Assembly (NCBI GenBank): GCA_008632985.1
Contig: QPGO01000031.1
Span: forward strand, 496,001 to 560,000
Source of the DNA: Psammoneis japonica
Taxonomy: Eukaryota
Direction: 5' to 3'
DNA length: 64,000 bases
The translations under genes and the position numbers were made by a program. Of the stretch, positions 3,936 to 57,990 are shown piece by piece; the first letter of the stretch is position 1; each line of letters opens with the position of its first letter. Below the pieces are notes generated by a model that saw nothing but the letters and a program-made list of their open reading frames with translations, was not told where the DNA came from and ran no database searches.

Positions 3936-4079
3936 CGTTTGCTGGTGTTTCGAACTGTGCAACTGTGATGTGTGATGATGTGACACCGTGCGCGCGTGGG
4001 GTCGGTATCGCCGGGTCGGTCGAGGGCGCCGCGAAGCGCCGCAGTGACGTGTTGTGAGTTGTGATGGCAAAAAATGGGC

Positions 4080-10000: not shown

Positions 10001-10763
10001 ACAGGGAAGCCAGAGCTTTCAGTCAGCAGAAAGGTCTGCCATGGAACTGAAACCCAGGTCATCTGCTTTTGGTGTGCTTGTCTGCCAGTGACACCCAGCT
10101 GCAGCTGTGCCATCACCAAAAAGAGGAGCAACAGGTGCTTCAGCAGTGTGCTGTTGGCTTCTTCCTGCATGGCAGCAACATCATCTGATCTTGCATTTCA
10201 AATGTTTTTCAACTTCACAATCAAAGTTTTCTCACTCATTGCGCTGTCTCCAATGGTGCTTTTTTCTGGCCAACTCAAAATGTTCATCAGGGTCATCATG
10301 TGGTGCTGGTGGGCAAAAGGGTTTGGGGGGGAGCTGGGGCTCCCCAGTTCATTTTGTCTGGCGAGATGGGTTGTGAGCTGCTGGGACGTGCCACGCACCA
10401 CGCAGTGCCACGTGCCATGCACCACGTGCTGCATTGGCATGGACCACGATGAGCGCATGGTGCTCACACGCACATGCAGTGCACCCCACACAAACCGCAA
10501 TGAAGATGCCATGGATTGCAAAAAGATGGCATTGAACGAACACACCATGGAGGATGATGCGCCTGCTGCGGGCGAGTCTTTTCTCTCCTGAGGAACTTGT
10601 TTGTGAGAATCCAACAAGAGTTCTCAGACAAGATCACACTCTCTCTGTTTCTTTCATGCAACAAAAGGCCTGTCCAGGTGCCTGGCCAGCCAGAGCAGAC
10701 TGCACTGCAGTTTAATGTGTGCAACAGATCGCATGATGATGGTTTGACCCACTGCAAGCATCA

Positions 10764-26413: not shown

Positions 26414-27191
26414 GTTGTTGTTGTTGTCTCGTTTTGAAGCCGTGAAAGTGGGAGTAAAATCGAGATCTGAATAAACCAATTGAAGTCTATTTCGCTATTC
26501 AAAATAGGAATTGAATAAGCAAAATTGATTGCCAGCAGGTCACGGAAATGACAGGCGCGTTCGGTTGTCCTTGGATATAGCTAGAGCAACAACGTCAAAA
26601 AAAAGGCTTTGGCTGTCAATCTAAGCTCCTTGTGCAACATGTGCTTATCAAAATGTGGGAGAACCAGGGCAACAAAGCTCCACACAGGTCAAACCACGAG
26701 GAGTAGTTGTAAGGTCAGTTTGTGACGGCGGCAGGCGGGCGGGATGGACAAAAAATTGCTGGATGTCCGTGCATCATCCGTTTCCGATTTCGCTTGCGCA
26801 CTAACTCGCGCATGCCAGAGTGGCGACGTCACAAGGATAGGTATGGATAGACATCGACGAGTCACAAGATGGTCACAACGGAAAAATGGAAATAAGCCCA
26901 GACACAAAAAGTCATTTCGATAATCGGAAGACATAAAAGGATAACTGAGCACATGTAATTTGTCAATTTCCATGTATATGTCCACGTATGTTGTTATATT
27001 CGAAAATTTACTGTCACAAATTGGGTGGATTTCGTTCTGCTGATTGAAGAGCTAAGACAAAGGAAGATACAAGTGCCGCTTCTGTTAGCAAGCGGGACGT
27101 GGGACATTGCTCGTTTTCAACGAACGGAAGCGAGAGCCTCAGTCCTTTCTTATTAGTCTTATTTGCCCTCGCTTTGGCTACGTCGTTCACC

Positions 27192-37599: not shown

Positions 37600-38330
37600 C
37601 TGTTCTTGTGTGCAAAGTTTCTGCACAGGTCTCAGCACAAATTCCATGCATTCTGCGAGTCATTTCAGACGGACGACTCATCAAACTGCCGATTGCTCTC
37701 TCTCCACACCTCCCAAGCATCAATGACCCCCCTTCTCTCCATTGTCCATTCAAGTTTCCTGTGTTGTGTGGTGAACATTTTCCCATCATTGCTGTTTTCA
37801 GAAGTTTGAAGCAGAGACCAGAGTTCAGTGTGCATTGGCCATCCTTCCGCTTGCCGACAAGTCTGCACAAGTTTCAGCACAAGTTCCATGTGTCACAGAA
37901 ACATTTTCAAATGGCTGACCTCCCAATCTCCTGACTGCTCTCTGTCCATCCCTGCCAAGCACCAACGACTCCCCTTTTACCTGCTGTCCTTTTAAGTTCT
38001 CTGCTTTGTGTGGCGGACACCCCTTCTGTCCTTGCTGCAACCAGAAGTGTGAATTTGAGATCAACTGGGCTTGATTTGGCTCTTTGCCTGTTTGCCAATG
38101 CTTCCTGCTAAGTTCCTGTGCAAGACTCAGTGCAAGTTCTGTGTGTCATGGAAACATGTTCTGACAGAAGATCTCCCAATCTTCTGATGGCTCTCTGTCC
38201 ACACCTGCCAAGCTCCAATGACTGCCCCTTTGCTCAATGCTTTTTTAAGTTCTCTGCTCTGGACAATGAACTCCCTTTTGTTGCTGCTGCTGTCGTGAGT
38301 TTGACTTTGAGACCAACTCAGTGGTCGGTG
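37600..38330 (+). repeat. Three diverged ~245-bp tandem units
   Basis: gctctct(c/g)tcca..cct.ccaagc..caa(t/c)gac recurs near 37695, 37937 and 38189. Confidence 0.7.
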
Positions 38331-40949
38331 ATGTTTTGGTCCCTGGTTGTGAAATTTGTGGTGTTTGCTCTGTTTCAGATCCTTTCTCACTTTGGAATGT
38401 TCCAAGATGGCTTGCTTCAGTGGAATGACCAGATCCAGTCCCAAGAAAAGAGCTCTTCTGTTGCTTTGGTTTCTCAAGTGCTTTGAAGTTGACAAATCAA
38501 TTTGCTGTTGCTGTCCGTGGCACCACTCCAACTGTTCCTGGCGGGCATCATTGTTTGTTGGTGGCGCCTGTCATGGCTGATCGCAACACATTCCTGCCAC
38601 ACTGTTGGTGCACTGGGGGTGTGGGTTAGCTTGTTGCTGGAGTTGCAGGGTGGAAGTGCAGCAGCACTTTAAATGTGGATTTTTGGTTTGGTTTTGTGTG
38701 GGAGTGTGTGCATGTGTGAGGGCACAAGTGGAGCACGCAGAGTCACCACTGAGTGAGTTGACATGTGCGGTGGATTTTCCACTGGTTCAAAATCCACGTG
38801 GTCCACAAACCCTTTCAGTCAGCAAAACTGCAGCATGCTGTGGCACTTGGCGCAAAATTATGTGCGCACTTCACCGTGTCAAAAAATGGAAACCAACAAA
38901 AGCACAAAGGAAAGAGACAATCTGTTGTCTGCCCTGTGCAATGGAGGTGCTCCAGTGTTGAACTCGCTTTGCAAGATTGTTCCATGCAACATTTGTGACA
39001 AACTCATGAAGAGACTTGGATGCTGGATCTCCTCCATTGCATTCAACAAATGGCACTTGGGCCATTGTCACGACGTTGTTCGCAAGGTGAGCACAAAGAC
39101 TCACAACTGTTTTTTCCACAAATGATTCACAATTCAGTGAAAACATGGCTCCAACATGCACGTGAAAAACAACGGCATTTAAAGGTGCTCTGTTTTCAAA
39201 AAGGCGCTGGATTTTTAAGCCATTTTCAATTTTTTAAAAGGTGCTGAGCAATGAACAAAGGTGCTGACTTTTTGGGCTGTTTTTTTTTTTAAGTGCTGGG
39301 TTTTTAAAGGTGCCAAGTGCAGCACTGTGCTTTCAGGTGTGTGCAAGGGAGAAGAATGGTCAAGGCATGAACTCATGATGGAGAGTGTCTCTCTCATGAT
39401 GATGCTCACAGAGTGCCCGTTGCATGCTCTGCCATCTCCAGAGCAAAAAATTTGAGCAGCCCTGGGAATGACTTTGCTCTGGCCCTGTCTGGCTGACCAG
39501 AGCAGCTGGAGCTGGAGCAGTGGAATGCGTGCAGATGTGCACAAGTTGTCTGTTGTTGTTTGCTCACATGCCTTTGCACACTGAGCATGCACACAAATGA
39601 CAAAACCTGGCTTTTTTTGGCTGTGACGACCTGCAGCACCTGAGAGAATTTGATGTAAAAAAGCAGTTCATTTGCCAAAATCTCACATCACAACATGACT
39701 CATTGAGAACACATCACAGGGCTCTCTTTGGAAAGCAGCTTTCTTCTAAATCTGTGACATCCACTTCATTTGCAATGACAAGCAACAAAGTTCAGCAGGA
39801 TGCCGTGGGCTGTGGAGAGACAATGATGTGCAATTTAGACTTGCAGCCTCAGTGTTTTTTCTTTGTGCCCACCATCAGGTGTTTCATCATTGGCTTCTCT
39901 CAAGATGAATTTTTCATGGCAATTGTGTGTTCCCGGTGTCAAACATGTGACAAGTGACAACATGTCAAGGGTGTCCAGCAGCATCACAAATGCAAGCAAG
40001 TTGATTGAATCCAATGGGCTTTTTGCACTTGCTCCAATTGCATTGGCACAGATCACAAGCCAGCAAATGTGACCTTGGCACATTGTGTGGAGCATCTGGT
40101 GATGTCAGCACAATTGATTGCATTGTCAGGTGCAGCAGAACATGGGGGCAAACTTGTCATTTGGTGTGCATTGCATTGCTGCAAATTTGCAAAAATTTGG
40201 AATTTTGCCCCACAACATTCTCTCATTGCAGCCCATCTGCATCTGTGAGCCACCTCATCTTTTTGTTGTTCACATGTTGATTGCATGCAAGGAAGCACAT
40301 GCATGGATGACAAGACAATTTGCGCACCTTTGGCAGAATGGCCGCAGATGGACAAGAAGGGTGTGGGTGTGATGAAGAGATGCAGGTAGAGGAGCATGAT
40401 GTGCCCAACCAACATGAGCCAACTGGCTGTGCAATGTGCAGCATGCGCATGCAAGACAGTGTGTGATGCCATCTCAGCAAGTGTTTGAAGACAGCTGTGG
40501 TGACTTTCTGTTTGACAATGCACCAACAGATTCCCAATGAGTGCAGCATGACCCGTGTGCAGCAGAGTGAAAGGCACAGTTGTCCATCTGGGGCAGTGCT
40601 GCTCTCAGCTGTTGCAACAAGTGCTGATGGCAGCCAATGCATGCAGAAAAAATGGTGCAGTGAGTCCCTGGGTGCAGCTTGTTGTTGAGTTGGGGCACGA
40701 TTGTTGTCAGCATTTTTGCAATTTTGTTTGCTGCGAACACCAAAAACTCAGGACATTGATGACAATGACATCATCTCAAGCAATGGATTGGAGCACTCAA
40801 GCAGATGCCAGCAAGCCAAATGTTTTGCACTGGGTTAATTTGTCATGTTTGCATTGTTGTGCCTGCATGCCTGAAATCAGCGTGGGTGATGTTTTCATCC
40901 CCACATGGCTGCCATTGTTGCTTCTCATCTCTGTCACATGTTTTGACCC

Positions 40950-42200
40950 AACCTCATCCATTTTTTGAAGCTGCGCACATTTCCTGCATGACAGTGTTGC
41001 CAAAAAAATGCTGGAATGCTGGAGTCCAACAATGCCTCTGTGTGCTCTGCCCACAGCTGGGTGACCCCAATCATCCATGAACACTTCAGCATGGTTGTGT
41101 TCCTTTTTAACAAGGACAAGGAGGGCACTGCCGAAGGCAACCCAATGGACATTGTGGGGTGTGGGCTGGGCCTTTTTTGCTGGCCCAGTGCCAAGCACTT
41201 GATTCCCAGTGTGACCCTGACCCTTGGCATGCCAATCACTCTGAAAGTTCAGTGTCCCTCTCTGGGATTTGCTTGCAGCAGCACTTTGTGCCGCTGCCCC
41301 CCAGTGCCAATGCCGCCATGCCAGCAACTCCAAATGCATTGTCATTGTCCCGGAGCACAACTTCTGGCAACTCCAAGAGAGCTCTCATGTTTTCCCAGAA
41401 CACAACCTGGAAAATGACAAGAATCACTTTGGAGATCTTGGATTTGCAGAAACAACAGGGCTTGAGCCATGGAATGACACCAGCACACCCATCCATGCTG
41501 AGCAGCAACAAACTTTCCTGTCAAGAGTTTCTTCATGTGCTCTTGCACAGTGCACAGCCATGGACCATCACTTGTGTGTCCATCATCCCAATTTCTTTTT
41601 TGGGAAACTCAAGAATGGAGCAATGAGCAGGGCATGCTGCATGATGATGGTTGGTGTGCATGATGTGTGACATCTGACTGGCTGTCACATTTGACCATTT
41701 GGCAGGTTGACTGCTCTCTGTTGCTGTCTGACCATGCTTCCTCTGGTGTCTGTTGCACTCTTGGATGAGCTCCCTGGTTGGCTGTGGTGCAGGCCATGAG
41801 CACCAGACCTTGAGCTGAGGCTCCAGATCTGGGGACCTGAATTTGGAGCTCCAACCAGAGAGCTGCCACCCCAAAGGAAGGCAAGCAAGAGGCCTGCACT
41901 CAAGCAACAAGTGAGGCAAAGGTGAAGGTGAAGTGGGAGGGGAGCTGTGCAATGGCTCCTGGGCCACAAAGCAAAGAGCTGGGAAGGCCACAGCACCTCC
42001 ATGGAGAACAGCCAAGCAGTGTCATGCAAGCAGCACAGAGGACAAGCAAAGGAAGGCAAAGCCAGTGGGGAGCAAGGTTGGATGAGAGCTGTCAAACAAG
42101 GCAGTTGGGCTCCACCAGATGTGGAGGATGCATGCTGAGCTGCTCTCACATGCCATCTAGCTGCACCACAGCCAGGTGTTCAACTTGGGCAGTGCCAGTC
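40950..42200 (+). mobile_element. Degenerate CRE-like non-LTR retrotransposon (RT and downstream region)
   Basis: KEGTAEGNPMDIVGCGLGL (cf. EGVTQGDPL.M..YGLG), PWHANH (cf. PWYADD), SKCIVIVPEHN...FGDLGF..TTG and PSML...LSCQEF. Confidence 0.65.
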
Positions 42201-42249
42201 TCAAGGCAGGCATCATGCAAGCTGGCTGCTGGAGAAGCATGGCACACTC

Positions 42250-43300
42250 CCAGAGGCTCACAAGAAGGTGTGCCAAGCCTCCAGGCTTGGTGAGTGCTGC
42301 AGCAACAAATTGTGCAGCTCTCTTTGCAATTTGTTGCAGCAAAGCAGAAGGTGCAGCTGGGTGGCCTCCTCAGAGAGCCTCCAACACCAAGGCAGAGCAA
42401 GATGAGCAGAGGCACAGAAGGCAGAGTCAACCTCAACAAGCACCAAAGGCATGTCAGTCCACTCACCTGCTTCATCATTGAAAGGGATTGACACACAAGC
42501 TTGACCCTTTAGAGTCCCACTCTAAGTGCAATTGGCAAGACAACTGGTGCATTGTCCAAAACAGCACAAAAGCACCAGGCAGCAATCAAGCGGTGCAGTG
42601 TGGTGTCAATGGAAGAAAAGAGCCACACAAGTGTTGACAATGCATGGGGCCCTTGGCATTGACAAAAGGCTCCTACACTCAGCTTTCAATGAGCTTTGTG
42701 GGGAAGCCCATGCACTGGATTGGCACAACCAAGCAATTGCACAAAGTTGAGCTCAAGGCTCCACAACCACCCAAGCATGCACAGGGTGTCAGACAACTCC
42801 TCCTCAGAGTGTTGGTCACATGAGACCAAGCAACTGACAAGCCAAGACCAGAGGTTCTTGTCAAAGCAAGGCTCCACGAGATGGTCATGTGGCAACCACA
42901 AGTTGCAGTGAGCTCCAACTTGTGTCATGATCTTGCCATGGCACCACAATGCTTTGGAGAAGGCCCAAGCTGCTTGAGTGCTGATCACCCAGTCAAGAGC
43001 CATGGCAATGCAGAGGCACAGGAAGACGCCTGTGCTGGTGTCTTGAAAAAGGTGCTGCACATGATGTCAAAAGCTCTGGGCCATCTCTCTGCAGGCAAGC
43101 AGCAGAAGGAAATTTGATGCATTTCTCAACTGGCCAGATGACAACAACCCAACAATTGTCAGTGTCAAAACCCAAGAAGCAAAGAAGATGGCTGACAATC
43201 ATGCCATCCCATTTCATGTGGCTGAGCACCAGAGTTGGTCATGGACTCTTGTCTGAGAATCCAAGCACAGTGAAAGCTGTGATGGCATTGATGGCTTAGA
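42250..43300 (+). mobile_element. Possible second degenerate CRE-like LINE RT fragment
   Basis: SAFNEL and FLSKQGST resemble NAFNE and FLSKEGVTQGD; heavily decayed. Confidence 0.4.
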
Positions 43301-44279
43301 GAGTGCATTCCACAGTGTGTGCTGTGGCATTGTTGCACAAGGTGTTCCATGGAGTCTGTGCAACACCTTGATGCCTTGAGACAACCATCAAGCTTTCTGA
43401 TTGTAGAATGACAAGAACAATGAAGATCCAACTTGTGGTGCACTTGCTTCTTGCATTCATCCTTGACCCTCAATGATGCAATTTGCAAGCCTCCAATTGA
43501 ATTTCAGAAAATGAGCCCACCAACCTGTTCTTCTCTGAAACAATGGTCTGGAAACTCATTGACTCTGCCTTGAATTTAGAGTCAAAGAGGTTCATGTCCT
43601 TTGTGTTTTTGACAGAGCCATCACCAGGAGCGTTTGCACTGCATCGACACAGCACCATGGTCCAAGCTTTCCTGCTTGCCATTCAGCCTGGCTCAACTGC
43701 ATTGTGCCAACCTCCACATTGTCTGAATCATCCAGTTTGTTCCAAAATTCCAAAAACAATCTGGGAAAGTTAACAAGTGGGGCCATCCTTTGTGATGGAC
43801 ACACATGCCTGCCTTGGACCACACCCCGACTTAACCATGATGTGGACACGACATGCACAGAGTCATGCCTCTTTGCCAAAAACATGCAGAAGACGAATCT
43901 AACTTGCACTGCTTTGTTCTTCTCACCCTTTGTGAATGCACTCAAGCTGCAGTTCTGTCATGTGTGTCTTCATCCTTTGACAAACTGGGATCTGTCCATT
44001 CCCACGGCTTTGGAGTCTGACAAAAGAAGAGCAGATTTGTGACAGAAAATCATCTTGCCCCACTTGGTTTGCTTCTTGATTAAACGCACCCATTTTCCTT
44101 TGGCTGCTTCACAAGATTGGGTTTGTAGGGTGTTCTGCCGTCAAGACATAAATTGCACAATTTTGAAGTGGAAAACATGATTCTGCCCAATCTCAGATGT
44201 AAAACAAAGCCAGCTCTCAAATGCTGACAGTGACAAAATTTTCTGTTGTGTCTTTTCCCAGTGCAAATCCCACAGCAGC

Positions 44280-45520
44280 CACATGAATTTGAAAATTCAT
44301 GCTGCAAAATGCTCAAATCATCATCATCTCCTTTGGCCCAGAAACATTGTTGACAAATTGCAAGAGCAAAAGGTCAAGAGCACATCAATGCATCTTGAAT
44401 GTCTTGATGAGCTTGTTGAGTGCAGTTGGTCCAAATTCAGCCAAAGTGTGCTTTTGTTGGGCTTTTTTGCAAACTTGCACACATCAGCACCCGATGGAGG
44501 ACAACATGATTGCTGAAGCCCAAAGACATTCCATGCCTTCCCCTGTCAACTCTGCACATGCATGGCTTTTTGGAGTCAACATCACATGCACTTCCATGAT
44601 GCACATGATGCTGTGAAAGGAGCACAGCTTCATTTGCAAAATCTTCACAAGAGGCAAGCACTTCTGCCAGCTTTGCACATTTTTTGCACAACTTAAGTGC
44701 TGATCTTCTGCCCCTCCTTTTTCATGCTTCAGGTTTGCACCAATCAACCCCCTTTCAACCAAGACTTGCAGCAACCCCTTTGGTTTGCTGTGCCAACCTC
44801 AGAGTTTCTTCTGCTCCATCTTTTTTGTTGCTGGAGCACTTGCTTTTTCACAGCCATCCTGCAAATTCTTCCTTGCTGTGCCCTTTGGCATGGCACAGAT
44901 GGAGTTCTTGCTGGTCAAGTCATTCTCCAGCTCTTGCCAGAGTTTCTCAGCAGGAGCTCCATTTGTCATTCATGGTGTCATTCCTTTTCTCACAGTTGCT
45001 CCTCCTTTTCCATGGGGCTCAGTGTCATCCTAAAATGCCATTGATTGTGTGTCACCAGCTTGCAATCTGCAAGCATTCACATGCCATCCCATGCATTTCT
45101 CTGTCAATTTGGCATCTCTCATCATGTGTTCCCCATCCCAGGTTCATCTCATGTGCAAATGAGCTGTTCTCCATCTGCTTTGAATGGCCCATGACAGTGG
45201 CAAAAAAGAACATGTGGTCAAAATCAGGGCTCCTCATTTCTGCAATTGTGTTGACACACAGTCCACAATGTTGCAAGTCCAGCACCTTTCATTGTTTTGG
45301 CTGCACTGAAACTCACATGTGAGTTGTTGTTTGTTGTGTTGTCAAAGCTTTCTTCTTTGTGCTTCTCATCCTCTGGCATCCATTGCTGCTGCTTCATCAC
45401 AGTGGAGCACTCCTTTCCTTTTTCATTGGCTTTCTCTCAAACAAAGCATCACTGAGATCTTTGCAGCAAGCCAAATGCCAGGCATGTGAAAAAAAGAGGC
45501 TCTGGTTTGCAACCAATGCA
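44280..45520 (-). mobile_element. Degenerate IS630/Tc1-like DDE transposase
   Basis: PDFDHMFFF...GHSK...MNLGWG; LQVLVERGLI; LASCEDFANE; LTPKSH..AELTGEGMECLWA (cf. TPKYHAELAGEGIEYSW). Confidence 0.7.
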
Positions 45521-46699
45521 AACACCAACACAGCATGGCAGTTGGGCTGGTTGTCACCAAGCAGTGCCATTTTCTGCCAGCCACTTTGCAGCATGATGCT
45601 GACAACACTTGCCCTGACAACTCACACTGCTCTCACTCTCACTTCCTTCCTCTCCTTTAAGACATCCAAGGACAGCCCAATGCCAAATGGCCTTTTTTTA
45701 TAAGTTGGTTGCCATGCTCTCAATGTCCCATCCAGAGGCAACTGAGACTGACACCCAGCTGGAAAATTGACAACATCAGACAAAACATCAGTGCAATCTC
45801 ACACCACCATCTTGACAAAGGTGGTGTTCCATGATTGTGAACAGGTGAGAAATTTGGCAACAGTGTGACACAGAATGATGTCCACTTGTGCAAACCCTGC
45901 AGGACAAGCCACAAAAGGGTTTGTCATGGTGGTTGTGAGTGAGGTGTCCCTGGCAAAGCCTCACATGAAGAAAGCATGAGTGGAGACTTGCACTCTGACC
46001 CTTGTCAGCAAAAAGGAGCAACAACCCAAGAAAATGAGCAAGAAGATGTGCTTGACAATGTCTGCCAGCCTGGCTCATGGTTGGTCACATCACAAACATG
46101 GCCAACCATGCAGCTCTTGTGCTTGTTTCAACAAACACAAGAGCAAGGCAGGGCTCCCAACTTGTGGCTTGAGCAACAGGAATTTGGACAAGAAACCTTA
46201 AAAGCTTGCAACCTCCCTGGAGACTGGCCTGCTTCAGCCAGAAATTTGCAGACTCATCAATGACCCCACCCCCAATGACAAAAAATGACAAGGACAAAAA
46301 AACAAGTCATGTGCTGACAGTGAAAAGGAAAATGCAACACCCAAGAATAAAAAGAAGGACATTGACAATGGAAGAGATGGCAAGGAGGTTGAAACTGCCT
46401 CAAAGGAAAGAGCACATTTGGAGGAGAGCACTTTCGCCTCAGCTGCAGAGCACATCATTCACAAGGCACATGGCAAGACATGTCACTTGATGACAGATCT
46501 CATTGGTGGTGTGGTGGAATGTCAGACAATCAACACTGTCAAGAGTGTTGATGCTGGGCAGCACCTGCTCATGCCTGCCAAACAATGCAATTTCATGGGG
46601 TCAAAATGTGAAAATGGGGAGCTCAGAGAGGTTTGCTGCACTCCAAATGGCAGTTTTGCAGCAGGGTTGCAATGCAAAAAGAGCCAAGGACATCAGAAC

Positions 46700-48000
46700 C
46701 CTGTTCACCAGGCAAACAGCAGATGACTTGGGATGTGGGTGAGCATGAGATGCTCATCCTTGTGATGGAACAACTTCTTGAAAGCCATCTTGAGTCCACT
46801 CTGGAAAAGGGAAAATTGCCAGAGAGCAGCATGCCAAGACATTCAACAGAATGGCCCCATGTCAAAACTTGCAGGAAGCAGCAAGATGCATTTCTGAACA
46901 TGAAATTTGTGGATTGCTTGCACACTGAATGACATTGATGGAAAGACCAATGAGCCCATCTTTGATGCACTGCACTCAAAACATCTTGATTTAAGAGTTC
47001 TTGAAGAAGAAAAAACAGCAAACTGCTGGAGCTTCAACACATCATCACAGACAGTGCAACAGAGACCATGACAAGAAAAATGTTGAGGAGACTTGTTTGG
47101 GACAGATGCCAGCATGGCATCAGATTGGCTGCTCTGCCACAGCAAAAGCCAGTGGGTTGCTCAGGGAAGCATTGCGTGTGTTCACAAACTGCCTGGCAAA
47201 TGAGTCTTGTCTCCCATGGGCAGCCTGCCAAGCAATGACAATGACATTCTTGGTGCCAGAAAAAAATCTGGGCAGCCATCAGGTCTTGAACTCGTGGAGG
47301 TCTGGCACTGTGCCATGCCCAAGTCCATTCTTGCAGTTGCTGGATTTGAAGCCAAGGAAGCCTGTCGCATGGATCAGCTTTGTGCTGAGCTGGAAGCAGG
47401 TGCCCAAGAGTGAGATTCAGATGACATGGACATGCTCTGGGAGCAACACAATTGAAAACAACTGTGGTTTTCTGTTTGTTGAGACCTTCAGCAGAGTCAA
47501 TGCATTGAATGTGATCTTGATGCTGCACAATGTGAGGCACAATCTGGGACAGGTTTGCTGTCAGTTTTTTGCAAGCACTGGGTGATCCCAGTCCTCCATG
47601 GACACTTTGGCATGGCCAAGTTCCTTTTCTGTGAGAAGGTGCTGTCCAAGAAGGTGATCCACTGGGCATGGTGGCACATGGGCTGCACATGGGCCAAGCC
47701 TTCTTAAACTGGTCCAATGCTCAACACTTGAGATTTCCCAATGTGCTTGCTCCTTGCCCCTTGGCATGCCAGCAACTCTGCTGCTGTGGGATTTTTCTTT
47801 GCACTTTGCACCATTGGTTGCAAGCATGAATGCCACCCTGTTGACAACTTTGAGAATGTTTTCATTTTCCCAGAACACAACCTGGAGAACACCAAAAATC
47901 ATTTTAGATGTCTTGGAGTGGGGGGGATTTCATTGGCAAGAAGGATGTGCACAACCAGCAGATCAATGCAAATCAAAGGCACAGACCTTGGCAGTCAATG
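46700..48000 (+). mobile_element. Degenerate CRE-like non-LTR retrotransposon RT
   Basis: KASGLLREAL...LANESCLPWAACQAM, VAGFEAKEACRMDQLCAELEAG, GFLFVE...MLHNVRH, EGAVQEGDPLGMVAHG and PWHASN (cf. WYADD). Confidence 0.75.
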
Positions 48001-50244
48001 AGGTCACCAAGATCATGATTTGTCACCCACAGACCACTCCTCACACCAGTCTTCAGAAGTTCCCACAGCATGAGTGGCAATGTGTGCAGCACATCATTTG
48101 AGGATTGCACAGAAAACCCATTCCCCCCCAAGATGGAGCCCATGTTGGGGGACGTTTTACCCCCTCAACAGGTCCTGCCCCTGCACCCCTCCACTGTCAC
48201 ATGCAGAAGGGTTGTGCCTCAACTTGAGGTTTCCCATCTGTGTTGCATCATGTCAAAGCAAATCACCTGGCTTGGCTGTGTTCCCATGATGTCACCCATG
48301 AATGTCACTGCCCCAATTCTGAGACTTGTTGATGTCACACTGTGACATAATTTCACAACGTCAGATCCTCCACCCCAAAGGGATGACTTCACCATCACAA
48401 TGTCAGAATTTTTGATCTGGCCCATCTGCCTCATGTGCACGTCACACCCAAACTCTGAAGTTGGCATTTGTGCTGTCTTGCATTGTGCATTTTCCATCTT
48501 GGCTTGGCTGTTTCACCCACTCTGATGTTTTGTGCATTTCAATGCATGACAGAATCATCATGCAATGGCTGGCAATGCTGCGCTGTTTTGCTGTTTGTCA
48601 GACCATCATGTTGTGTCCATTTCTGCCAAATCCATCACCGTTGGATGCCCTTTTGTTTCTTCTGGAGACGCCCCCTGCTCTGCAACTGTTGGTCACCGCA
48701 AGCAATGCAACATGTCACCCAACAGCACCCATTGTTTTCTCTGCATCACACATGCATCCTGCTCTGCAGTCATTCTCCATCCTCTTGGTTTGCAATGTTG
48801 CATTTGAACCCGACAACAAGCTCTTGCCCATGAATGAAATTTGCAGCTGTGAGAGAGCCACGCACCATTCTTGTTGTAAAGGAAATGACAATGCAAGACA
48901 CACATGTGGCACAAACTTGCCTCTTCAATGTGAGTCTTTGTCCTCCTCTGCCTGCTTGGTTTCCCACTCTGCATCTTAAAGCAAACCTTGCAGCATCAAT
49001 CTTGATCGTTTCTCTTGTCTGTGGCATCCAGCCCATTCATTGGCCATGTCGTTCTGCTGGCCATGATGGTTTGGGGGTTCCTGTTGTTGGTGCCTTTCAT
49101 GCGGCAAGGATGACCAAGTCCACCCCAGCAGCACTCCAGTTGTTCATGTTTCATGTCCAATGTTCAGTCGAAAAGTCGGTTTGTGTGTTGGTTGCAGCTC
49201 CATCAGATGTGTCCTTGGCAGTTTTCAAAGTTTTCACGGTTGCCATTTGCAGGTGCTGGAAACGTTTGTCACTGAAGTTCTTAATTTTGATTTTGAACAA
49301 TGATGACATCCAGCTGTGGATTTGTTCAATGTGGTCATTTTGAAAAATGCAGATGTCCAGCCTTTAAAAAAGGCTTTTTTGAAACTTGTGTTTTCCTTTC
49401 TGATGAAGCTCCCTCTCGCAACAAACGTCCAATTTCCTTGTGACGTGGATGCCTTTTTTGTGCTGTGCATCACAAATGCAATGTCAGATTCTAGCTGCTG
49501 AATGGGCACAATGCTTTTGCACCACCTGCAGCATGTGCCTGCCATCAACAGCACCACTGTTGCCCCTCCCCATGCCTGGCATGTTGCCAAAGCAGTTCCT
49601 GCTTGCTCCATGGCAGAGTTTGCATCTTTGCAGCTGGCATTGCCAGAGCCCCTCCCCGTGTGCCCAATGTGGGTTGACAGTGCATTGCCGCAGCCCCTGG
49701 CTCTGTGATTTGCAACGTGCTCTGCCACAGCAGAGTTCATTTTCCATGATTTCTGATTCACCATTTTGTTGTTTTTGTGCAAGTGCATCCATCACTGTTG
49801 GTTGTCATGTCCTCTGCAGAGTTTCAGAGTTGCCACAGCAGCAAGTGAACACCAACAATCCACACGCACTGGCTTTCAGGGACAGCTGAACCCTTTTGAC
49901 AGAGATTTCAGGTGTGTGCAACATTGATGGCACTTCTTCCTTGGAGAGGTGCCACTCTCAGTCTTGCCAGGGAGGCAAGCCCATTGCTCTCTGAGGCCAT
50001 CTTGATGTTCAGAGGTTGGGGGGGGAGCCACAGGCATCCCAGGCCACGCGAACAACTTTGCACAAAGACATCACCTGGGTGCAGCTGCAGCCGGCAACCC
50101 GGGCAGTTGCTCAAAATGTTTAGAGACAAGAGCAACCTTGTCTGCCATTCATGGCCACCAGACTTTTTGAAAAGTGGCAGATTGTAGATTTAAAAACAAA
50201 AGAATGCTCTTCACCCTTGGACCACTCCACATGATGGCATTCAA

Positions 50245-50465
50245 TGTTGGCATCCACTTGAGCCACCCAGCAAGTCATTGGCATCTGCTTGAGCCACCCA
50301 GCAAGGTGTCGGCATCCTCTTGAGCCGCCTTGCATGCTGCAGTGTCCACTTGAGCTGCCCCATTTGAAGTGGTGTCAACTTGAGCCACCCGCATGATGTG
50401 GCATCACACTTGAGCTGCCTGCATGACATGGTGTCAACTCAGCCACCCTGCATGATGTGGTGTCT
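50245..50465 (+). repeat. ~30-bp minisatellite, about 7 units
   Basis: Head-to-tail cttgagcc(a/g)ccc...gg(c/t)(a/g)tc units. Confidence 0.8.
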
Positions 50466-50999
50466 TCCTGCAGAAGTGTGGACAAAGATTGAAGGAAAAC
50501 AAGAAGTTGAGAAAACAAAAAAAACAATGCATTGAATCAACGGAATCCATCAAATGCTGTGGAGTGATTCATTTGCTGAGAATGTGAGAATGAAACAACA
50601 GCACAATGACAGACGCAGTTTTTGTTCATTTTTGGACTGTCTCTCACCTCTCTTTTCACAGATGTGCTTGTCAGAGCAAAACAAATCATGTCATGCATTG
50701 GCACTGTTGTCAGGAAAGCATTTGGCAGCAAAATTGGCAATATTTGTTGATGCCATCATGGTGACAGAGAAAAATCTAATGTTGAAATGACGAGAAAGAA
50801 AGGTTTGCGACACAGGGAGGGAAATCTGACCTTGTTTCATGACGTCCCATGACGTTTCACAACAGTGCATCAGAATCTGACATTGTGGTGGTGACATCAA
50901 CAGGATCGGAAAATGCCAAGGTTGCGCTGCAGTTCCAGAGCCACGAAAACTGTTTTCTAAACCAAGGGCATCATGTTCATTGAAAGATCTGGACAGGAA

Positions 51000-52400
51000 C
51001 ACAACAAAGCATGGCCATCAAATAAAAATGTCTGGTGTGACATGGCCAAGTGGAGGGAGGTCAAGATGAGGGAGGTTTGGGGGGTGAGTCACCTGAGATG
51101 GTGCACCCCTGACATGGACACCCAACATGAGGGACTCCATTGAGAGGGAGTCCCTTGCAATGGCAAAAACACCCTCAAGCTGGGCAAAGTCTGATGAAAC
51201 CCATTTCCTGTGTGTGGCAAGCTGTTTGCAGATGTGGAAGTTTCTCCAGCATTGGCTGGCAAGATCCCAGTGGGTGCAAACACAAAAACAGCCTTGTTGT
51301 TCTCCCAAGAAAATTTGCAGGACTGTCCATCTCTCTCATCCAATGGAGTCTGTGGTGCAGAGCCACAAAACAAATGCTCTTGCATGCTCTCACATGATCA
51401 ACTTGCTGCACAGCTGCTCAAAAGCCACCTTGGCATTCCACAAGGACATGATTTGTGAAGTGAAATGAGAAGCACAGCTCTGAGGAAAGCACAAGTGCAT
51501 CATGAGGAAACCTTGAGATTGAGACTCTCAAGACTCTCCACCTGCAGATGGCCCAAGCCACAGGATGCAGTGCCAAGGCTGGCACATGGCTGTCAGCACA
51601 CCCATCCATGCTGAATGGTGCCAAACTCTCCAGCCAAGAGTTTTGCAACACACTCTGTGCTGTTTGGGTGTGCTTCACCTGATCTGCCTGGGAATTGCAA
51701 TGGATGTGGGTGCAAGTTCTCCATCCATTCAACACACCCTTCAGCTCAAGAAGCCCCCCCCCCCCCCCCCCCAGGTCATCCAGCGACATGACCAGATTCA
51801 TGACAAGCCAGCAATCTGTTGTTGGCAAAGGCAACCAAGCCTTCCCAAATGCATGCATGATGAACCTGTTGTTGACCCTTGCCACACCTCAGGAGTCCAA
51901 ATGCAAAGAGAGCCAACAACCCCCAACAGAACTTGCTGAGCATTGCTGCAAACTCAAACAAGATGGGAGATGGCAGCTGTTGAGATGTCTCAGTCTGCAG
52001 TGGGTGGGGAAGAATGGCGGATGATGCAGTCATGGATGTCAGAGTTGTTGACACAGACACGAAGTCATGCTTGTCCAAGACACCAGAACAGCTTCTGTTG
52101 GACCACAAAAAAGCAAAAGCACAGCACAAGTCTCAAGCCTTGCCTTGAACAACATCACAGGCCTGCTTGGCAAAGAGGCCAGGGGCAACTCTGCACTCAA
52201 CAGCACAGCACAGTTGGCCAACAAATGGCAAAAGCCACACTTGGAAGTGCTGGGCTTTGTTGGTGTGAGAATGAGAGCTGTGTGCAGCAACGGCAAGGGC
52301 AGCAGCCCGCCTTTGCCTGTGGGACTCACACATCCCACTGTCCTCTCAGATTGGCACCAGATGCGCTCAATGGGAAAATGGCACTGGTCCATCTCTCCAC
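51000..52400 (+). mobile_element. Degenerate CRE-like LINE 3' part (zinc knuckle and restriction-like endonuclease region)
   Basis: GTWLSAHPSMLNGAKLSSQEF; GLLGKEA...LANKWQKPHLEVLGFV..RM (cf. LA.KW.KPYSEV.G+V..RM). Confidence 0.65.
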
Positions 52401-53783
52401 AAGTGCCAGATCAATTCAAGACTGGCAGAATCCACATGTGCTGAGACTCAGCAATTGTGTCAATGTCCTGCACTTTGAGGTCAGTTTGACCAACCCTGCA
52501 GGTTGTCAAAGCCCATCATGAGAATGGGTCCAATGCCAGGTTCCATTCAAACCACCCACCCAAAATCCAACTCTGTTTGCATGGCTGCATCAACTGCACA
52601 AATTCCCTTTTCTCATGTTGAGATTGAAGCACATCAATCAGTTTTGACAAAACAGATGTGGTGCATGTAAAATCACATGTGAGCTGCACGTCATCCAGTG
52701 CGAAAAGCATGCCCCGAAGCACCGAGTGAACAAAGTGCCCTGTGGTTGCATGCACTGGGGATGAGACCAAAGAAATCTTGCAACATTGTGCCACTTTTCC
52801 AGAAGTGAGATCCACATCTGAGGAACTGCTTGATGCCCAACTGCCAATGACAAAGCACAAAAACCTGTCCCAAGTTGATTGCGGGGTAAATTCTTCAGTC
52901 CCTCAAGTCGATGAATTGGACAATGAGCCAGCTTGACCCAACTCATGCTCTGGCCACATCTGGTCACTCTGGTGTGACAAGGAAACCCTGGCAACCTGGG
53001 CTGAACCCTCCCCCCAAGGGGAAAGGGAGCTGGATGTGATGGACAACTGGTCTTCACAGATGTCGTGGAGGATCATCCCCACAAGTTCACCTCATTTCAT
53101 GCCACCACACATGATCTCAGTTGTGAGATCCACCGGATTGCATTCCAAAACAAATGTGCCCAGTGAGTGACTCACCCATTGCCATGGACTCACTCATGTC
53201 ATGGCGGCAAATGGAGCTTGACTTCTTCTTCAAAGCAGACTCCAGACTTTGCCTGTTGTGGACAACTGACATGTTGTCCCCACAGATGCAGGGTGGCCAG
53301 ATGATGGCACACCCATCATCCTTGACTTGTGTTGCAGGCCATGCAACGGCTCCATGCCCTGCTTCATGGCTGCAAACTTGGCTCCAAAACCAGGGTTTCA
53401 ACTGCAATGTGCGCTTTGAAAACCACATCATCAAGGCCATGTTTGCGCAGATGAAGAAGCCGGTGTGTGAGCGCCTTGTCAACTTGTCATTCGCATGATC
53501 CAAGTCAACAAACAAGTGCAGATCAACCTCCAAGCTGGAGGTTCTGGCGCACTGGGTGGGATTGTTTCTTGCACATCCCCGCAAAATGACTTCCAGCCAC
53601 ATTCCTTGAAGTCAGACGTGTCAATGTCTGGGTGTGTCAGGCTGAACAATCTGGCATTGTGTCTTGCCTTGAGGTGCCCACAGACATGGAAAACAGCCTC
53701 AAGATGACCCTCCCTGGGCATGGCAAGAAACAAGGCAAGCTCAGAAACCTCCATCATCAGATTGATGTGTCCAAGCTCCGCTG

Positions 53784-54230
53784 TGCAGCATGCATGCAGA
53801 CAAAAGGTCATTTTTGTCACACCCTTTGTGACATTTAAAGGCTGCAACACGTCGCCGTGATGCATTGACTCTTGTCAGCAGCTGTGTGTTGCACTCCTCC
53901 CCATGCATCACGCGTCCATGCGGCTCTTTACTGACGTGCACTGACACTGCACGGTTTTGGCGGAACAGTGTGGGCACGTGCGAAGGAACACGCAGAACTG
54001 CACAGAGTTTTGCGCGTTCGACAGTGATCAACGTTGCTGCAGGCAACTCCCACTCAGGGTTTCGAACCCCTGGCCTCCTGCCCAATGGTTGCGATGAACC
54101 ACTCCGCCATGAATTCACAGTGCAGCATGCATGCAGACAAAAGGACATTTTTGTCACGCCCTTTGTGACATTTAAAGGCTGCAACACGTCGCCGTGACAC
54201 ATTGACTCTCATCAGCAGCTGTGTGTTGCA
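53784..54230 (-). mobile_element. TRIM (miniature LTR element): 110-bp LTRs, 227-bp interior, 4-bp TSD GCTG
   Basis: TG...CA direct repeats at 53784-53893 and 54121-54230; GCTG at 53780-53783 and 54231-54234; PPT ggggaggag on the minus strand next to the left LTR. Excision restores the Copia RT frame GVLQWTAELGH. Confidence 0.9.
54045..54116 (-). ncRNA. tRNA-derived segment with Pol III A and B boxes inside the TRIM
   Basis: A box TGGCGGAGTGG (54109-54099), D-stem GCGG/TCGC, GGAGGC variable-loop-like segment, B box GGTTCGAAACC (54068-54058); anticodon arm shortened. Confidence 0.7.
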
Positions 54231-57099
54231 GCTGTCCATTGCAGGACACCTGCCTGCAACTGGCAGAACGGGACTTTGTCTGCTTCTGGCTCAGGCAATG
54301 CATCCAACTTGGGGCGGCAATCCTGTGGAAGTGGATGATGCCCAACATGGCAATGTCTGTCCAGGGTGGCATTCGTCCAGACGCGCCTTGACATTCTTGA
54401 CAGCCTGCTGGGTGCACTTGCTGGAGCTCATGTCCCATGCACAAATGCCGTTTGGCATCTGCACCTCTCGGATCTTGGCACCCAGACACATCTCAGGGTC
54501 GCCGATTGAACCAGGCTTCATCTTGAAGCAATGGCCCAACTCCTTGAGTGCCCTTGTGGCATCGCGGTGTGCCATTGGTGCATGTCTGCATGGAGCAGTG
54601 CACGTGCACAGTGTCAGAGGAACCTGTCCTTGGGCCGGACCATCTCCCCAAGCCACACATCGGGATCAGCCAAGCAAGGCTTCCACCCAAGGTGTTGCAT
54701 GCCTTCCTGCATCATGGCCAAACTCTGGGCCTGTGGTCACAGCAATCTTCTCACCATCTGCCTTGACCTCCAAATCATTCAGAGCAACCAGAGTGAAGGC
54801 AATCCTTGCACTCTTGCACGATGCGACACTTGCACATGTCAAGGTTGTGGGAGCATTGGCGGTGTGTCCACCAGCTGTGCAGCATGCCTTGTGCTCAAAG
54901 TCCTGCAGCTTTGTGTCAAAGACCAAGTGACACTTGACATGCTGGCATCCAACCAGTTCCTTGCCATCATCAATGATCTCAAATGCCTTGTCAATGATGC
55001 CCATCTCCTTGTTTGTGGCATCTTGCCTCAGACGTTTGTTGTTTGCCTTGTTGATCTTGACAGCCTCATCTCATGTCTTGGGAATGTGTGTCCTGGTTCA
55101 TCCTCAATTGACTGGGCTCCAGCACACTCAGCCAACTTGACAGGATTGGATTCCTTCAAGTCTGCAAGGTGTTCCCAAGTGGTGGTTCCATCTTTCCAAC
55201 AAACACAAAGGTGCCATCCTTTGGTCATCTCATGCATCATGGTTTGGCATCCTCTGCTGTCCTGTGGGAAGGCGTCATCCTTCTGGACTGCATGCCCATC
55301 AGTCTTGTGATCAATGATTGCTTCCAGCGGCCTTTGTTGTTGCATTGTGCAAAAATGTTCTTGGCTGTGATGTTGGCCATGAACTCTGCTTCCTGTCCAT
55401 CAGGAAATTCGACCTCATGTGTGCAAGTGTCCAGGATGGGATTGGCACTGGCTCCACCCATCAGTGTTCCATCTGAATCGAGCTTGCGCTGTTTGACTGT
55501 TCCAGTTTGTTGGGTGTCCCCATGAGGCAGCAACAGCACCTCTGAGTTTACACAGACATCAAAGGCAGCATTGGGAATGTCATCCTCATTGGGTGCACTC
55601 GCAGGAGCATCCTGGTCTTCATCATCCTCGTGCAGATCAAAGGCAGGAATCACTGCATTGGGGTCATTGATGTCTCCAACTGTCACACCTGGACCTGGCT
55701 TGGCCTCCATTGGCCCATCAAATTTCTCACACAATGCCACATGCATCTGGTGGTGCTGTTCCTCTGGGCTCAAGGGTCAACAGGATGAATGGTGGACAAC
55801 TTGTCCATTGTCTTTCAGTGTCATGGTGGGACCCACATCTTGACTCGGACCATGGTGCTGATGCCCTGGGACTTCCTTGTCCTCAGGGAATGAGGCTGCA
55901 GTGCCCCTGAACATGACCCATCACACCAAAAGTCACACCAGCCAAACTCACACATGTGCAAAATGTTGGCTGTCTGTCTGGACAGCGTGGTTTCTGGAAC
56001 CTCTCCATCTAACTTGCAAATGTCGTGGATGATGTTGGATTGGATGAGAGCTTCAAGCTCAAGACAATCATTCCAAAGACTTTTTGGGGGCTTGAGTCTT
56101 CACCATTTTTTGTCTGACACCCCGCATGAGTTCACAAACAGTGCCCTCAGCGAAGTTGGACCATGGGGTGTGGGGTTCAGTCTGCTTGATGTGGCAGTCA
56201 GCCTCGCTGGCCTTCTTGCTGAACTGACCCAATGTCCACTCCTTTGCCCCATCCATGATCATTGTGTGGGGTGCACCATTTTGCATGAAGAGCAAGGACA
56301 GAGCCTCATGAGACAATCCTTTAGATCTCAGGGGACAAGCCCATGCCCAACCATTGGACATGCCAAAGAAGACTTGTGTGCAGTTGTTGCCCCTTCTTGA
56401 TTCAGTTGAGGAGATCAAGGTGTCAGAGCACATCTCCTTTGCAATGCGCCTGTGTCGCAACTGTTGGTCGTTGGTCCAAAACCTTCACAACAGTTGGATG
56501 GAGGACCATTCGCATGGCATGCTGCATTGTGACTTTGACAGCATTGTCAGTGTCCAATGCTGACAGACCAATTCTTGGCCAACCATTCTGCATCAACGTG
56601 CAGTCCCCGCTTCATTGTCTTGAGTGAAGAGAAACTGATTGAGGCTGGCAGCGTGCAGTCATTGCATGCATGCATGATGTCTCAAAGTGGCTGATTCCCC
56701 AGATGGTCTGAGGTCTTTTGAGCTGTGGTGCATGAGAGCTTTGTGCTCATGATTTGAGTCTGAGGACACGCATCATCCCCAGTCTCAGGCATGCATCCAA
56801 GAGAGTCCATCATGGAATCCTCTCTGGCTTGGAAATTGGCAGTTTGTGGGTCCCATTTGGGGGACTTGCATGCAAGTTCTGCTGCCGTGCCATCTTGCAT
56901 GGCTGCTGCTTCACACTCTGAAGCTGTGGGTTTGGAGGTGGGAAAGCAGCTTGTGATGCCATGCAACTCCAATGGAATCAGGAGTTTGTCCCCATTTGCA
57001 CCAGTCAACATCACCGCATGTGACTTGCTGTCAGGCTTTGTCAGTGGAAATTTTGGTTGCAGATTGACCCCTGCATCATTCAGCCACAGCTGCACAGGA

Positions 57100-57990
57100 T
57101 CCTTTCTACCAGATTTGAGGTTGCCATTCTTGTCATGCCAGTTGTTCATCATCATGTCCTTCAATGACTGAAAGTTGGAGTGGCTGCACTTCTGCTTGAT
57201 GGCAGGCCACTGTGTTGGTTCCTTGGACTTGCAGCATTGTCCTGCTGGTCCTTGACATGGGCAGCAATGGCTGAGACTGTGCTGGTGAGGACCTTGACCT
57301 GCTTGGTGTTGTCCACAGCAGACGTTGTGTCCTGGGTCCCACGGGCATCTCACAGAGACTTGAGCTTCTTCTGCACCTTTGGGTTCAAGGTGCGGGATGT
57401 GCACAGCCTGGTGGACTGCCAGGATGCACAGGTGGCCCAAAGTGGGATCCGCACATGCAACAGCTCCACTGATGGTGCGCAGACTCTTGCTGGTGCCCTT
57501 TTTTGGGTTGCAACCTGTGACATCTGCTGGACAACCATGGTCAAGTGTAGTTGAAGCATGCTTGCCTGGTGTGCTCATGTCTGCATGACTGTCAATCTCA
57601 GCACAAGCTTCAGTGTGCACAGCATCCCTCGTGGTTGTTTGAGTGATGTGCAGGGCTCAAAGTGGACTGAGACACAGGGTTGGAGAGGATCAGCATTCCT
57701 TCTCCTTTCTGCCAGATTTGAGGTTGCGATTCTTGTCATGCTGGTTGTTCGTCATCGTGTCCTTCAATGACTGAAAGTTGGAGCAGCTGCACTTCTGCTT
57801 GATGGCAGGCCACTGTGTTGGTTCCTTGGACTTGCTTGCAGCATCATCCTGCTGGTCCTTGACATGGGCAGCAATGGCTGAGACTGTGCTGGTGAGCACC
57901 TTGATCTGCTTGGTCTTGTCCACAGCAGACATTGTGTCCTGGGTCCCACGGGCATCTCACAGAGACTTGAGCTTCTTCTGCGCCTTTGGG
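57100..57990. repeat. ~280-bp internal direct duplication within the Copia (57100-57383 and 57703-57990)
   Basis: Near-identical ccagatttgaggttgc.attcttgtcatgc...cacagagacttgagcttcttctgc.cctttggg in both copies. Confidence 0.9.

Follow-up and report, generated by a model that had tools for sequence, protein, structure and literature searches.

The window, that is, the whole 64-kb stretch of Psammoneis japonica DNA analysed here, was segmented by an HMM into normal DNA and three TA-depleted blocks (3927-5672, 6864-18507 and 37336-59802), which together cover 35,857 bp and retain 114 TA steps, with an observed/expected ratio (o/e) of 0.049 against 0.55 in the normal DNA of the window. The largest block, 37336-59802 (22,467 bp, 69 TA), encloses positions 37900-53000, is depleted in both TA (o/e 0.048) and CG (0.183), and is enriched in TG (1.85) and CA (1.87). 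Its edges are sharp: TA steps stand at 37331, then at 37419 and 37978, and TA is back from 59806. The second block, 6864-18507 (11,644 bp, 37 TA), has a TA o/e of 0.047 and a CG o/e of 0.279, and includes a weakly mutated edge zone at 17300-18507 in which TA is scarce and CG dense. The small block, 3927-5672 (1,746 bp, 8 TA), is less fully mutated (TA o/e 0.081, CG o/e 0.344). Genes adjoining the block edges are of normal composition. In a protein atlas, a fragment of adaptin was assigned to Eukaryota and to no narrower group.

Over all blocks TG and CA are about 1.8-fold enriched (o/e 1.82 and 1.83), and neither AA (1.21, against 1.12 in normal DNA) nor AT (0.87) is erased. Among steps ending in A, TA alone has been removed, AA, CA and GA being spared, which defines a rule of T at position -1 relative to the A. 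With the ancestor represented by proxies, the gains of NTGN and NCAN in the blocks approximate the losses of NTAN and NCGN in each flank class, the balance by the base at +1 spanning 0.73-1.42, and the blocks display TpA-only loss that yields TpG and CpA. Three zones, at 3.9-4.3 kb, 10-13 kb and 17.4-18.5 kb, are poor in TA yet keep many CG steps, and the losses of TA and CG are therefore spatially separable; the decay of CpG in the blocks is probably a separate process, namely deamination of 5-methylcytosine. A derivation of the remaining CpG from TA steps hit twice was rejected by reasoning, since the first hit deprives the other A of its preceding T, and a simultaneous double hit was likewise rejected as a source, since its products segregate at replication.

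The repeat status of the blocks is based on contig depth, which is not a copy number. A search of sequencing runs listed a single run that contains the stretch, and no RNA run. In this run, 3,013 contig pieces matched 20 kb at a likeness of at least 80%, and transitions made up 1,399 of the 1,891 differences between these pieces and the window. Summed contig depth on 37336-59802 ranges from 55 to 34,424 and is highest over the high-copy repeat at 53344-54677 (34,424 and 33,114 versus about 55 in the lowest bins). A direct duplication of 111 bp links 54120-54230 to 53783-53893 (94.6% identity). Self-BLAST of the window returned 8 repeat pairs. At 48 steps the copies of the aligned in-window repeats differ as TG versus CA; their TA-versus-TG/CA steps (10) and CG/TA step (one) are too few for a tally of context. 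A Pfam scan of the blocks, covering 139 of 178 open frames with at least 90 codons, detected no transposon or viral domain, nor did a comparison of 10 further proteins with Pfam at E up to 1. The Pfam scan also gave two sub-threshold matches to DUF6824 at a block edge. The open frame at 56685-57656 on the minus strand (324 codons) belongs to no Pfam family and appears from the homologue search as a decayed coding remnant, with 7 unnamed relatives (E 2e-21 to 6e-11, 38-45% identity, 26-39% query coverage). In its alignment conserved Tyr columns read Cys at two positions and Trp at one in the window, these roughly three informative columns being too few for a test of Cys versus His. The search with 4302-5267 on the minus strand gave no match at E <=0.001.

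The sequence-only reading had described the residual TAs of 37900-53000 as mostly YTAR, with some RTAR and YTAY and almost no RTAY, and the counts bear this out: among the 58 TAs left, 38 are YTAR (TTAA 22, TTAG 7, CTAA 7 and CTAG 2), 14 RTAR (ATAA 5, GTAA 5, GTAG 4, ATAG 0), 5 YTAY (TTAC 2, TTAT 2, CTAC 1, CTAT 0) and one RTAY. This sole RTAY survivor is the ATAT at 50741-50742, within the caatattt near 50740 that had been singled out as a rare case. The o/e values by base composition are 0.149, 0.056, 0.019 and 0.004 for YTAR, RTAR, YTAY and RTAY, respectively, and equal depletion over flanks is rejected (chi2 57.1, p 2e-12). The same order of classes is seen in 37336-59802 (43/16/9/1) and 6864-18507 (20/8/7/2), and the small block 3927-5672 has 3/1/2/2. 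The proposed NTAN tally, blocks against normal and non-ORF DNA, likewise revealed unequal depletion, with 66/25/18/5 of 114 in the three blocks versus the reverse order, 158/264/286/354, in the normal segments of the window (chi2 133.6, p 9e-29) and 68/88/79/98 in normal DNA without ORFs of at least 120 codons (p 3e-14), the latter being a rough proxy for introns and intergenic DNA.

Random draws of 114 among the 8,300 TA, TG and CA steps of the blocks never reached 66 YxxR in 10,000 trials (mean 26.3) and never fell to 5 RxxY (mean 29.0). Not all survivors are independent: five of TTAA type (39180, 39216, 39235, 39290 and 39305) lie in a short tandem repeat at 39180-39306. When the weakly mutated zones are removed along with five redundant sites (four in the 39180-39305 repeat, one a duplicate at 54173), the classes are 54/20/12/1. 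Zone 17300-18507 holds most CTAC and GTAG survivors, and pooled with 3927-5672 it shows no difference from normal DNA (classes 7/4/6/4, p 0.12). TTAA occurs at 0.95 per kb in the blocks and 1.17 per kb in normal DNA, whereas RTAY falls from 12.6 per kb in normal DNA to 0.14 per kb in the blocks.

The R/Y classes are too coarse to describe the flank rule and need refining. Every TAN context is depleted by at least 79% in the blocks, and half-site survival relative to normal DNA is 0.211 for TAA, 0.100 for TAG, 0.046 for TAC and 0.019 for TAT; these figures rest on proxies, with base composition or the window's normal DNA taking the place of the ancestral TA content. Erasure is most complete where a pyrimidine follows TA or, equivalently, a purine precedes it. 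A model with four bases at +1 is better than one with R and Y (2dLL 31.2, p 1.6e-7), and TA followed by C survives 1.5- to 2.9-fold better than TA followed by T. A at +2 protects further (2dLL 39.9, p 2.6e-10), being present in 55% of survivors and 29% of TAs in normal DNA (p 2e-15), and survival climbs with the length of the A-run through 0.05, 0.14, 0.26, 0.41 and 0.97. In a Poisson model with two ancestor proxies, 2dLL is 104-152 for +1 and 52-92 for +2, and both effects persist when the analysis is limited to the core blocks and redundant sites are dropped. The effects of the two strands are multiplicative, with no interaction between them (interaction term p 0.54), and by hand calculation the survival of RTAR/YTAY, 0.061, is close to that expected from the other two classes, sqrt(0.327 x 0.011) = 0.060. 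Both strands were struck in every kilobase, as the per-tile imbalance of TG versus CA does not exceed that of normal DNA (var z 1.59 versus 1.77).

The sequence-only reading had further named TAY as the preferred target. The flank preference does run in that direction, and the more specific part of the claim, which places the change at the A followed by Y rather than at the A preceded by R-T, is moderately supported. The survivor counts fit both geometries equally, because the derivation yields an identical survival formula when the far-side flank matters and A is struck fast in R-T-A, in which case YTAY would yield CA rather than TG. The products favour the A followed by Y. Gains of YTGY and RCAR amount to 25.4 per kb versus 14.4 per kb for YCAY and RTGR, a share of 0.64 (CI 0.57-0.70) that fell to 0.5 or below in none of 5,000 bootstraps, and the TG share of the TA-derived gain is 0.62 with C at +1, 0.58 with T, 0.40 with G and below zero with A. 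CpG decay may contribute to this asymmetry, a point in favour of the far-side geometry: regression of the asymmetry D on CG o/e gave a slope of -12.8 +/- 13.3, and D extrapolated to zero CpG loss is 7.1, with 6.3 in normal DNA. The asymmetry is nevertheless seen in all thirds of CpG loss (ratios 1.41, 1.29 and 1.31 versus 1.14 in normal DNA) and still exceeds that of normal DNA in the 9 tiles whose CG o/e is at least 0.3 (D 15.1 versus 6.3, p 0.03). GC is raised in the blocks (o/e 1.23 versus 1.01), AC is lowered and GA is not raised; the rise of GC and fall of AC are expected if TAC becomes TGC. Seven TA-versus-TG/CA changes occur among the 40 contig differences listed (of 1,891), of which TAY fits four, the far-side geometry is the better fit for two and one is a tie. 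Strong flank control of the strand should make TG/CA discordance between repeat copies rarer in Y..Y and R..R contexts; this strand rule found no support in the repeat pairs, with discordance at 23/156 in these contexts versus 10/108 elsewhere (p 0.26), a test that CG ancestors may blur. On balance the far-side geometry is considered unlikely.

Several known deaminases share single elements of this rule. Bacterial TadA requires TACG within YTACGAA, and a C>T change at +1 abolished editing (PMC12255301). Like the A edited by TadA in tRNA-Arg2 and mRNA, the target in the blocks follows T/U and is readily changed with C at +1; the TadA substrate is a stem-loop YTACGAA, whereas the blocks are DNA in which the erasure of TAT is no less complete than that of TAC (survival 0.019 versus 0.046), so that C at +1 is not required. 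Nor is G favoured at +2: the TAC survivors carry A, C, G and T there in 21, 9, 5 and 4 cases (216/155/138/163 in normal DNA), and TACG is not the most depleted, although CpG decay confounds this comparison. The likeness to TadA suggested earlier thus stands for the T before the A and fails for the TACG requirement, and the link to that enzyme is weak. The contrast with ADAR drawn at the same time is fair: the editing hot spot of ADAR2 is UAG (PMC10661471), and ADARs show a slight enrichment of G or A at +1 (PMC9600606), whereas in the blocks only TAA is spared more than TAG (survival 0.10). ADARs share A-to-I chemistry and a bias to U before A, and their substrate is dsRNA. In fungi, A-to-I editing of mRNA is performed by a eukaryotic tRNA deaminase on new substrates (FgTad2-FgTad3 with Ame1; PMC11087585), and such ADAT2/3 editing prefers U at -1, A or G at +1 and C or U at -2 (PMC9600606). 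The strong need for U/T at -1 is shared with the blocks; Y-U-A-R, the context preferred on RNA, is the one most spared in their DNA (66/114).

A process of the same type has been reported in the alga Bigelowiella natans, where mutation-accumulation lines acquired de novo A>G/T>C mutations at TpA only, at a rate about 1000-fold above background, and an ADAT2-like adenine deaminase was proposed without proof (Mettrop et al., bioRxiv 10.64898/2026.01.13.699255). In that species, as here, TpA alone is struck, with TpG and CpA as products, and the mutations of its integrated giant-virus and virophage DNA are confined to foreign or repeat-like domains seen as TpA-poor clusters rich in CpA and TpG. 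Differences are the near saturation of the present blocks (TA o/e 0.05 versus Rho 0.45 in the Bigelowiella NCLDV region) and the spatial coupling of TA loss with CpG decay in another organism. The words 'context', 'flanking', 'neighbour' and 'trinucleotide' occur 0 times in the main text of the preprint, which contains no flank analysis, and its figure 2B or supplements may hold a logo. This preprint was the only relevant result of a literature search covering TpA hypermutation, diatom TEs and RIP, and DNA adenine deaminase defence. RIP, known from Neurospora and other fungi, converts CpA to TpA by C>T transitions in repeats, and the blocks resemble it in outline, in that repeats undergo transition hypermutation at a dinucleotide target within sharply bounded domains. 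The direction is opposite: RIP makes TpA from CpA and leaves an excess of TpA with loss of CpA and TpG, whereas here TpA is destroyed (A:T>G:C) and CpA and TpG are gained. Membership of RIP is rejected on account of this opposite direction and target.

The surviving TAs are probably the slow substrates of a domain-restricted process converting TpA to TpG or CpA (A:T to G:C) in repeated DNA. TA would be the ancestral state and TG and CA the products, as suggested by the mass balance, the differences between copies and the Bigelowiella precedent. The two strands of each TA step would be struck independently, and the probability that an A:T pair changes would be set by what follows the A in the 3' direction on the same strand. 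T or C at +1 would make the change fastest, G would improve survival about 4-fold and A about 9-fold, and A at +2 would improve it a further 2.6- to 4-fold, more so in longer A-runs. From this +1/+2 rule acting on both strands it would follow that TTAA between a T-run and an A-run is nearly immune and RTAY is erased. The chemistry may be that of a polynucleotide deaminase converting DNA adenine to hypoxanthine, with a putative pocket that would read T at -1 and tolerate purines poorly, A least of all, at +1 and +2. Surviving TAs could in part have been regenerated from TG or CA and then filtered again, giving the same ranking with different numbers. More tentatively, and with somewhat less than even probability, a dedicated DNA adenine deaminase system may mark repeats and defend the genome by erasing their TpA, a counterpart of RIP in mirror image that would be shared with Rhizaria; its rule (T at -1, pyrimidine at +1, no A at +1 or +2), unlike those of TadA, fungal ADAT2/3 and ADAR, would make the enzyme a new specificity class.

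Deamination of A and modification directed at T leave identical patterns in DNA, A>G on one strand being T>C on the other, and all counts fit equally a thymine chemistry in which the T of R-T-A is hydroxylated or otherwise modified and then read as C. In dinoflagellates 5-hydroxymethyluracil replaces T preferentially at TpA, a point in favour of this chemistry. No enzyme route is known by which a modified T becomes a C-coding base at high yield, and conversion of adenine to hypoxanthine, the mechanism proposed for Bigelowiella, gives A>G directly; the thymine route is thus distinctly improbable. A process free of flank preference, whose survivors mirror the ancestral DNA or arose as new TAs after it had ended, could draw on the abundance of T-run/A-run DNA in non-coding repeats and on an ancestor known only through proxies. 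It would need an ancestor with 58% YTAR and 4% RTAY, compared with 15% and 33% in normal and 20% and 29% in non-ORF DNA; new TAs from TG and CA steps would favour neither RxxY nor YxxR, as in the random draws; and TTAA has kept nearly its normal density while RTAY has collapsed. Such a process is very improbable.

The joint loss of TA and CG in the same blocks could point to error-prone repair of the polymerase eta type, with A>G at WA during repair of deaminated methyl-CpG. Polymerase eta prefers WA>WG, whereas AA is undepleted in the blocks, so the target is TA and not WA; as the two losses are also spatially separable, this origin is hardly credible. Editing of retroelement RNA followed by integration is known in animals, and U at -1 is favoured by both ADAR and fungal ADAT, so that A-to-I editing of repeat transcripts by an ADAR- or ADAT-like enzyme, fixed by reverse transcription, might be envisaged. 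The equal enrichment of TG and CA, with a per-tile balance as in normal DNA, indicates that both strands were struck in place, and the 48 TG-versus-CA steps between in-window repeats indicate changes after duplication. The blocks are moreover continuous and sharp-edged, no recognisable retroelement domain emerged from the 139 frames scanned, and the +1 preference is opposite to those of ADAR (UAG) and fungal ADAT, all of which renders an RNA-level origin scarcely tenable.

Hypermutation limited to TpA is so far known from a single alga, through a 2026 preprint in which no enzyme is proven. The flank rule reported here, in which TAT and TAC are erased fast, TAG more slowly and TAA most slowly, A at +2 protects and the two strands act independently, is a testable fingerprint of the mutator. 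It argues that the activity is not a simple carry-over of the substrate rules of TadA, fungal ADAT2/3 or ADAR, and shows which TA sites are still usable as age markers of mutated repeats. It can be compared with the 231 de novo mutations of Bigelowiella, as a means of asking whether the same activity operates in both lineages, and could rank candidate deaminases by their preference in vitro. If a dedicated DNA deaminase is indeed responsible, its flank fingerprint can serve to identify the enzyme.

Three TA-depleted blocks were delimited in the window by a two-state HMM over TA, TG and CA steps, at 3927-5672, 6864-18507 and 37336-59802. Together they cover 35,857 bp and contain 114 TA, while the normal DNA of the four remaining segments (28,117 bp) contains 1,068. 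In 1-kb bins, TA and CG fall to near zero in some stretches, and TG and CA are almost doubled there. The observed/expected ratio (o/e) of TA is 0.05-0.08 in the blocks and 0.48-0.60 in normal DNA, that of CG is 0.18-0.34 and about 0.95, respectively, and TG and CA reach 1.6-1.9 in the blocks. Loss is confined to TA and CG, with AA at 1.21 and AT at 0.87. The block borders are abrupt; at one of them, for example, TA are spaced 10-50 bases apart until 6856 and then come at 7032 and 8187. A DUF6824-like domain (6737-7007, minus strand), broken across two frames and seen as two sub-threshold Pfam hits of 25.5 and 23.1 bits, spans the edge at 6864, with TA absent on the block side and abundant on the outer side. 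At 3927-4300, 10000-13000 and 17460-18500, CG is plentiful and TA scarce (CG o/e 0.4-0.6), and at 13000-16000 and 45000-47000 both are gone (CG o/e 0.0-0.1). This spatial uncoupling of TpA loss from CpG loss suggests two processes or two ages. The CpGs left in the blocks are biased in context; relative to normal DNA, density over all CG sites is 0.61 for GCGC and 0.10 for TCGA, and retention by class is 0.35 for RCGY and 0.18 for YCGR.

The normal parts are those of a eukaryotic window, with ORFs matching Adaptin_N, Stn1, NB-ARC with TPR, alpha/beta hydrolase and glycine-transporter families. Two adjacent long ORFs at 27099-30466 (plus strand), carrying NB-ARC (near threshold) and TPR repeats, suggest an NLR-like gene; they lie in the normal segment that separates the blocks. 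Only 8 repeat pairs occur within the window, and a Pfam scan of 139 of the 178 ORFs of at least 90 codons in the blocks found no transposon or viral domain. Contigs of one public run placed on the window at a likeness of at least 80% include 3,013 pieces over 20 kb, and their summed depth per bin, which does not equal copy number, ranges from about 55 up to 34,424. Transitions make up 1,399 of the 1,891 differences between these contigs and the window. Pile-up and depth are good but indirect evidence that the blocks are repeated DNA. In the segment 53344-54677 summed depth climbs to about 34,000, the lowest bins of this run standing near 55, which points to a very high-copy element; the segment holds a 111-bp direct duplication (53783-53893 and 54120-54230, 94.6% identity). 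Over 39831-48191, long contigs of the run (depth about 55-65) show scattered mismatches, for example 14 in one piece of 1,945 bases, which may be allelic or assembly differences; at three of these sites (42674, 44081 and 46199) the contig reads CA where TA stands in the window. A 324-codon ORF at 56685-57656 (minus strand) has seven relatives without a family name, and alignment with them places Cys at two conserved Tyr columns.

The TA that survive in the blocks are strongly biased in their flanking bases. Between 37900 and 53000, inside the largest block, 58 TA comprise 38 YTAR, 14 RTAR, 5 YTAY and a single RTAY, the ATAT at 50741, as the sequence-only reading had described: mostly YTAR, with RTAY nearly absent. 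Counts in the same class order are 66/25/18/5 for all blocks pooled, and the order is reversed in normal DNA (158/264/286/354; chi2 = 133.6, p = 9e-29) as well as in normal DNA outside long ORFs (68/88/79/98; p = 3e-14). When TA/TG/CA steps of the blocks were drawn at random 10,000 times, no draw approached the observed counts. The pattern is found in 6864-18507 (20/8/7/2) and in 37336-59802 (43/16/9/1), the small block 3927-5672 giving 3/1/2/2 from merely 8 TAs, and it is kept (54/20/12/1) when 5 non-independent sites and weakly mutated zones are excluded. Equal depletion of all NTAN contexts is contradicted by o/e values from 0 (CTAT) to 0.22 (TTAA). Among TA contexts, normal DNA is already poorest in TTAA (o/e 0.25), CTAG (0.34) and CTAA/TTAG (0.35-0.38), and because TTAA is rare there too, its density is nearly equal inside and outside the blocks.

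A finer rule emerges from half-sites, the bases 3' of each A with both strands pooled, whose survival was measured against normal DNA: TAA 0.211, TAG 0.100, TAC 0.046 and TAT 0.019. At +2, A is over-represented in all +1 classes (55% of survivors versus 29% in normal DNA), and in TAAA half-sites an extra A at +3 gives further survival (p = 0.009). With the count of additional As, survival rises from 0.05 through 0.14, 0.26 and 0.41 to 0.97. Per half-site and relative to T, a Poisson model assigns A, G and C at +1 factors of 8.6-9.1, 4.1-4.5 and 2.0-2.9, respectively, and A at +2 a factor of 3.3-4.2, all stable under either ancestor proxy. In core blocks, distinguishing all four bases fits better than R/Y alone (p = 1.6e-7), with a further gain (p = 2.6e-10) when A at +2 is included. 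An interaction term between half-sites is unnecessary (p = 0.54), and survival of the mixed classes (0.061) matches the geometric mean of YTAR and RTAY (0.060), as predicted by two independent strand-wise hits.

The changed A:T pair could be that of an A with a pyrimidine 3' (TAY), the target preferred in the sequence-only reading, or that of an A whose T has a purine 5'. Both yield the same formula for survivors, so that survivor counts are blind to the choice, whereas products can discriminate. Product gain per kb is 25.4 for YTGY+RCAR and 14.4 for YCAY+RTGR, a share of 0.64 (bootstrap CI 0.57-0.70) in favour of TAY; the excess is seen in tiles of low, medium and high CpG loss, and the trinucleotide balance, GC increase and AC decrease are all consistent with it. 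The fit of product excess to CpG loss is loose enough to allow for some CpG contribution, and aligned repeat copies lend no support, since TG/CA discordance is not rarer at asymmetric flanks (23/156) than elsewhere (10/108; p = 0.26). Of seven readable TA-related differences among the contig differences listed, four fit TAY, two do not and one is a tie. An A followed by a pyrimidine is thus probably, though not securely, the changed pair.

Among known adenosine deaminases, TadA requires TACG within YTACGAA (PMC12255301), fungal ADAT2/3 editing favours U at -1, A/G at +1 and C/U at -2 (PMC9600606), and ADAR2 has its hot spot at UAG (PMC10661471). On these descriptions, T at -1 is all that the block rule shares with the three. 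The proposed likeness to the UAC context of TadA extends to that base and breaks down at +1, where C>T abolishes TadA editing whereas TAT survives less in the blocks (0.019) than TAC (0.046). The +1 preference is opposite to that of fungal ADAT2/3 and of ADAR2, which bears out the suggested contrast with ADAR.

One-stranded editing of RNA that was then reverse-transcribed could be considered for the blocks, but their per-tile TG/CA balance is the same as in normal DNA, implying that both strands were altered in place, which speaks against it. A WA-type polymerase error is likewise disfavoured, AA being left intact. Thymine-directed chemistry would give the same pattern as adenine deamination. 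In the published literature on TpA-only hypermutation, one preprint alone was found, on Bigelowiella lines with 231 de novo TpA mutations (Mettrop et al., bioRxiv 10.64898/2026.01.13.699255), and no flank analysis was found in its main text, considered apart from figure 2B and the supplements. For TpA loss, adenine deamination in DNA would be the simplest chemistry, and adenine deamination is also proposed by the Bigelowiella authors.
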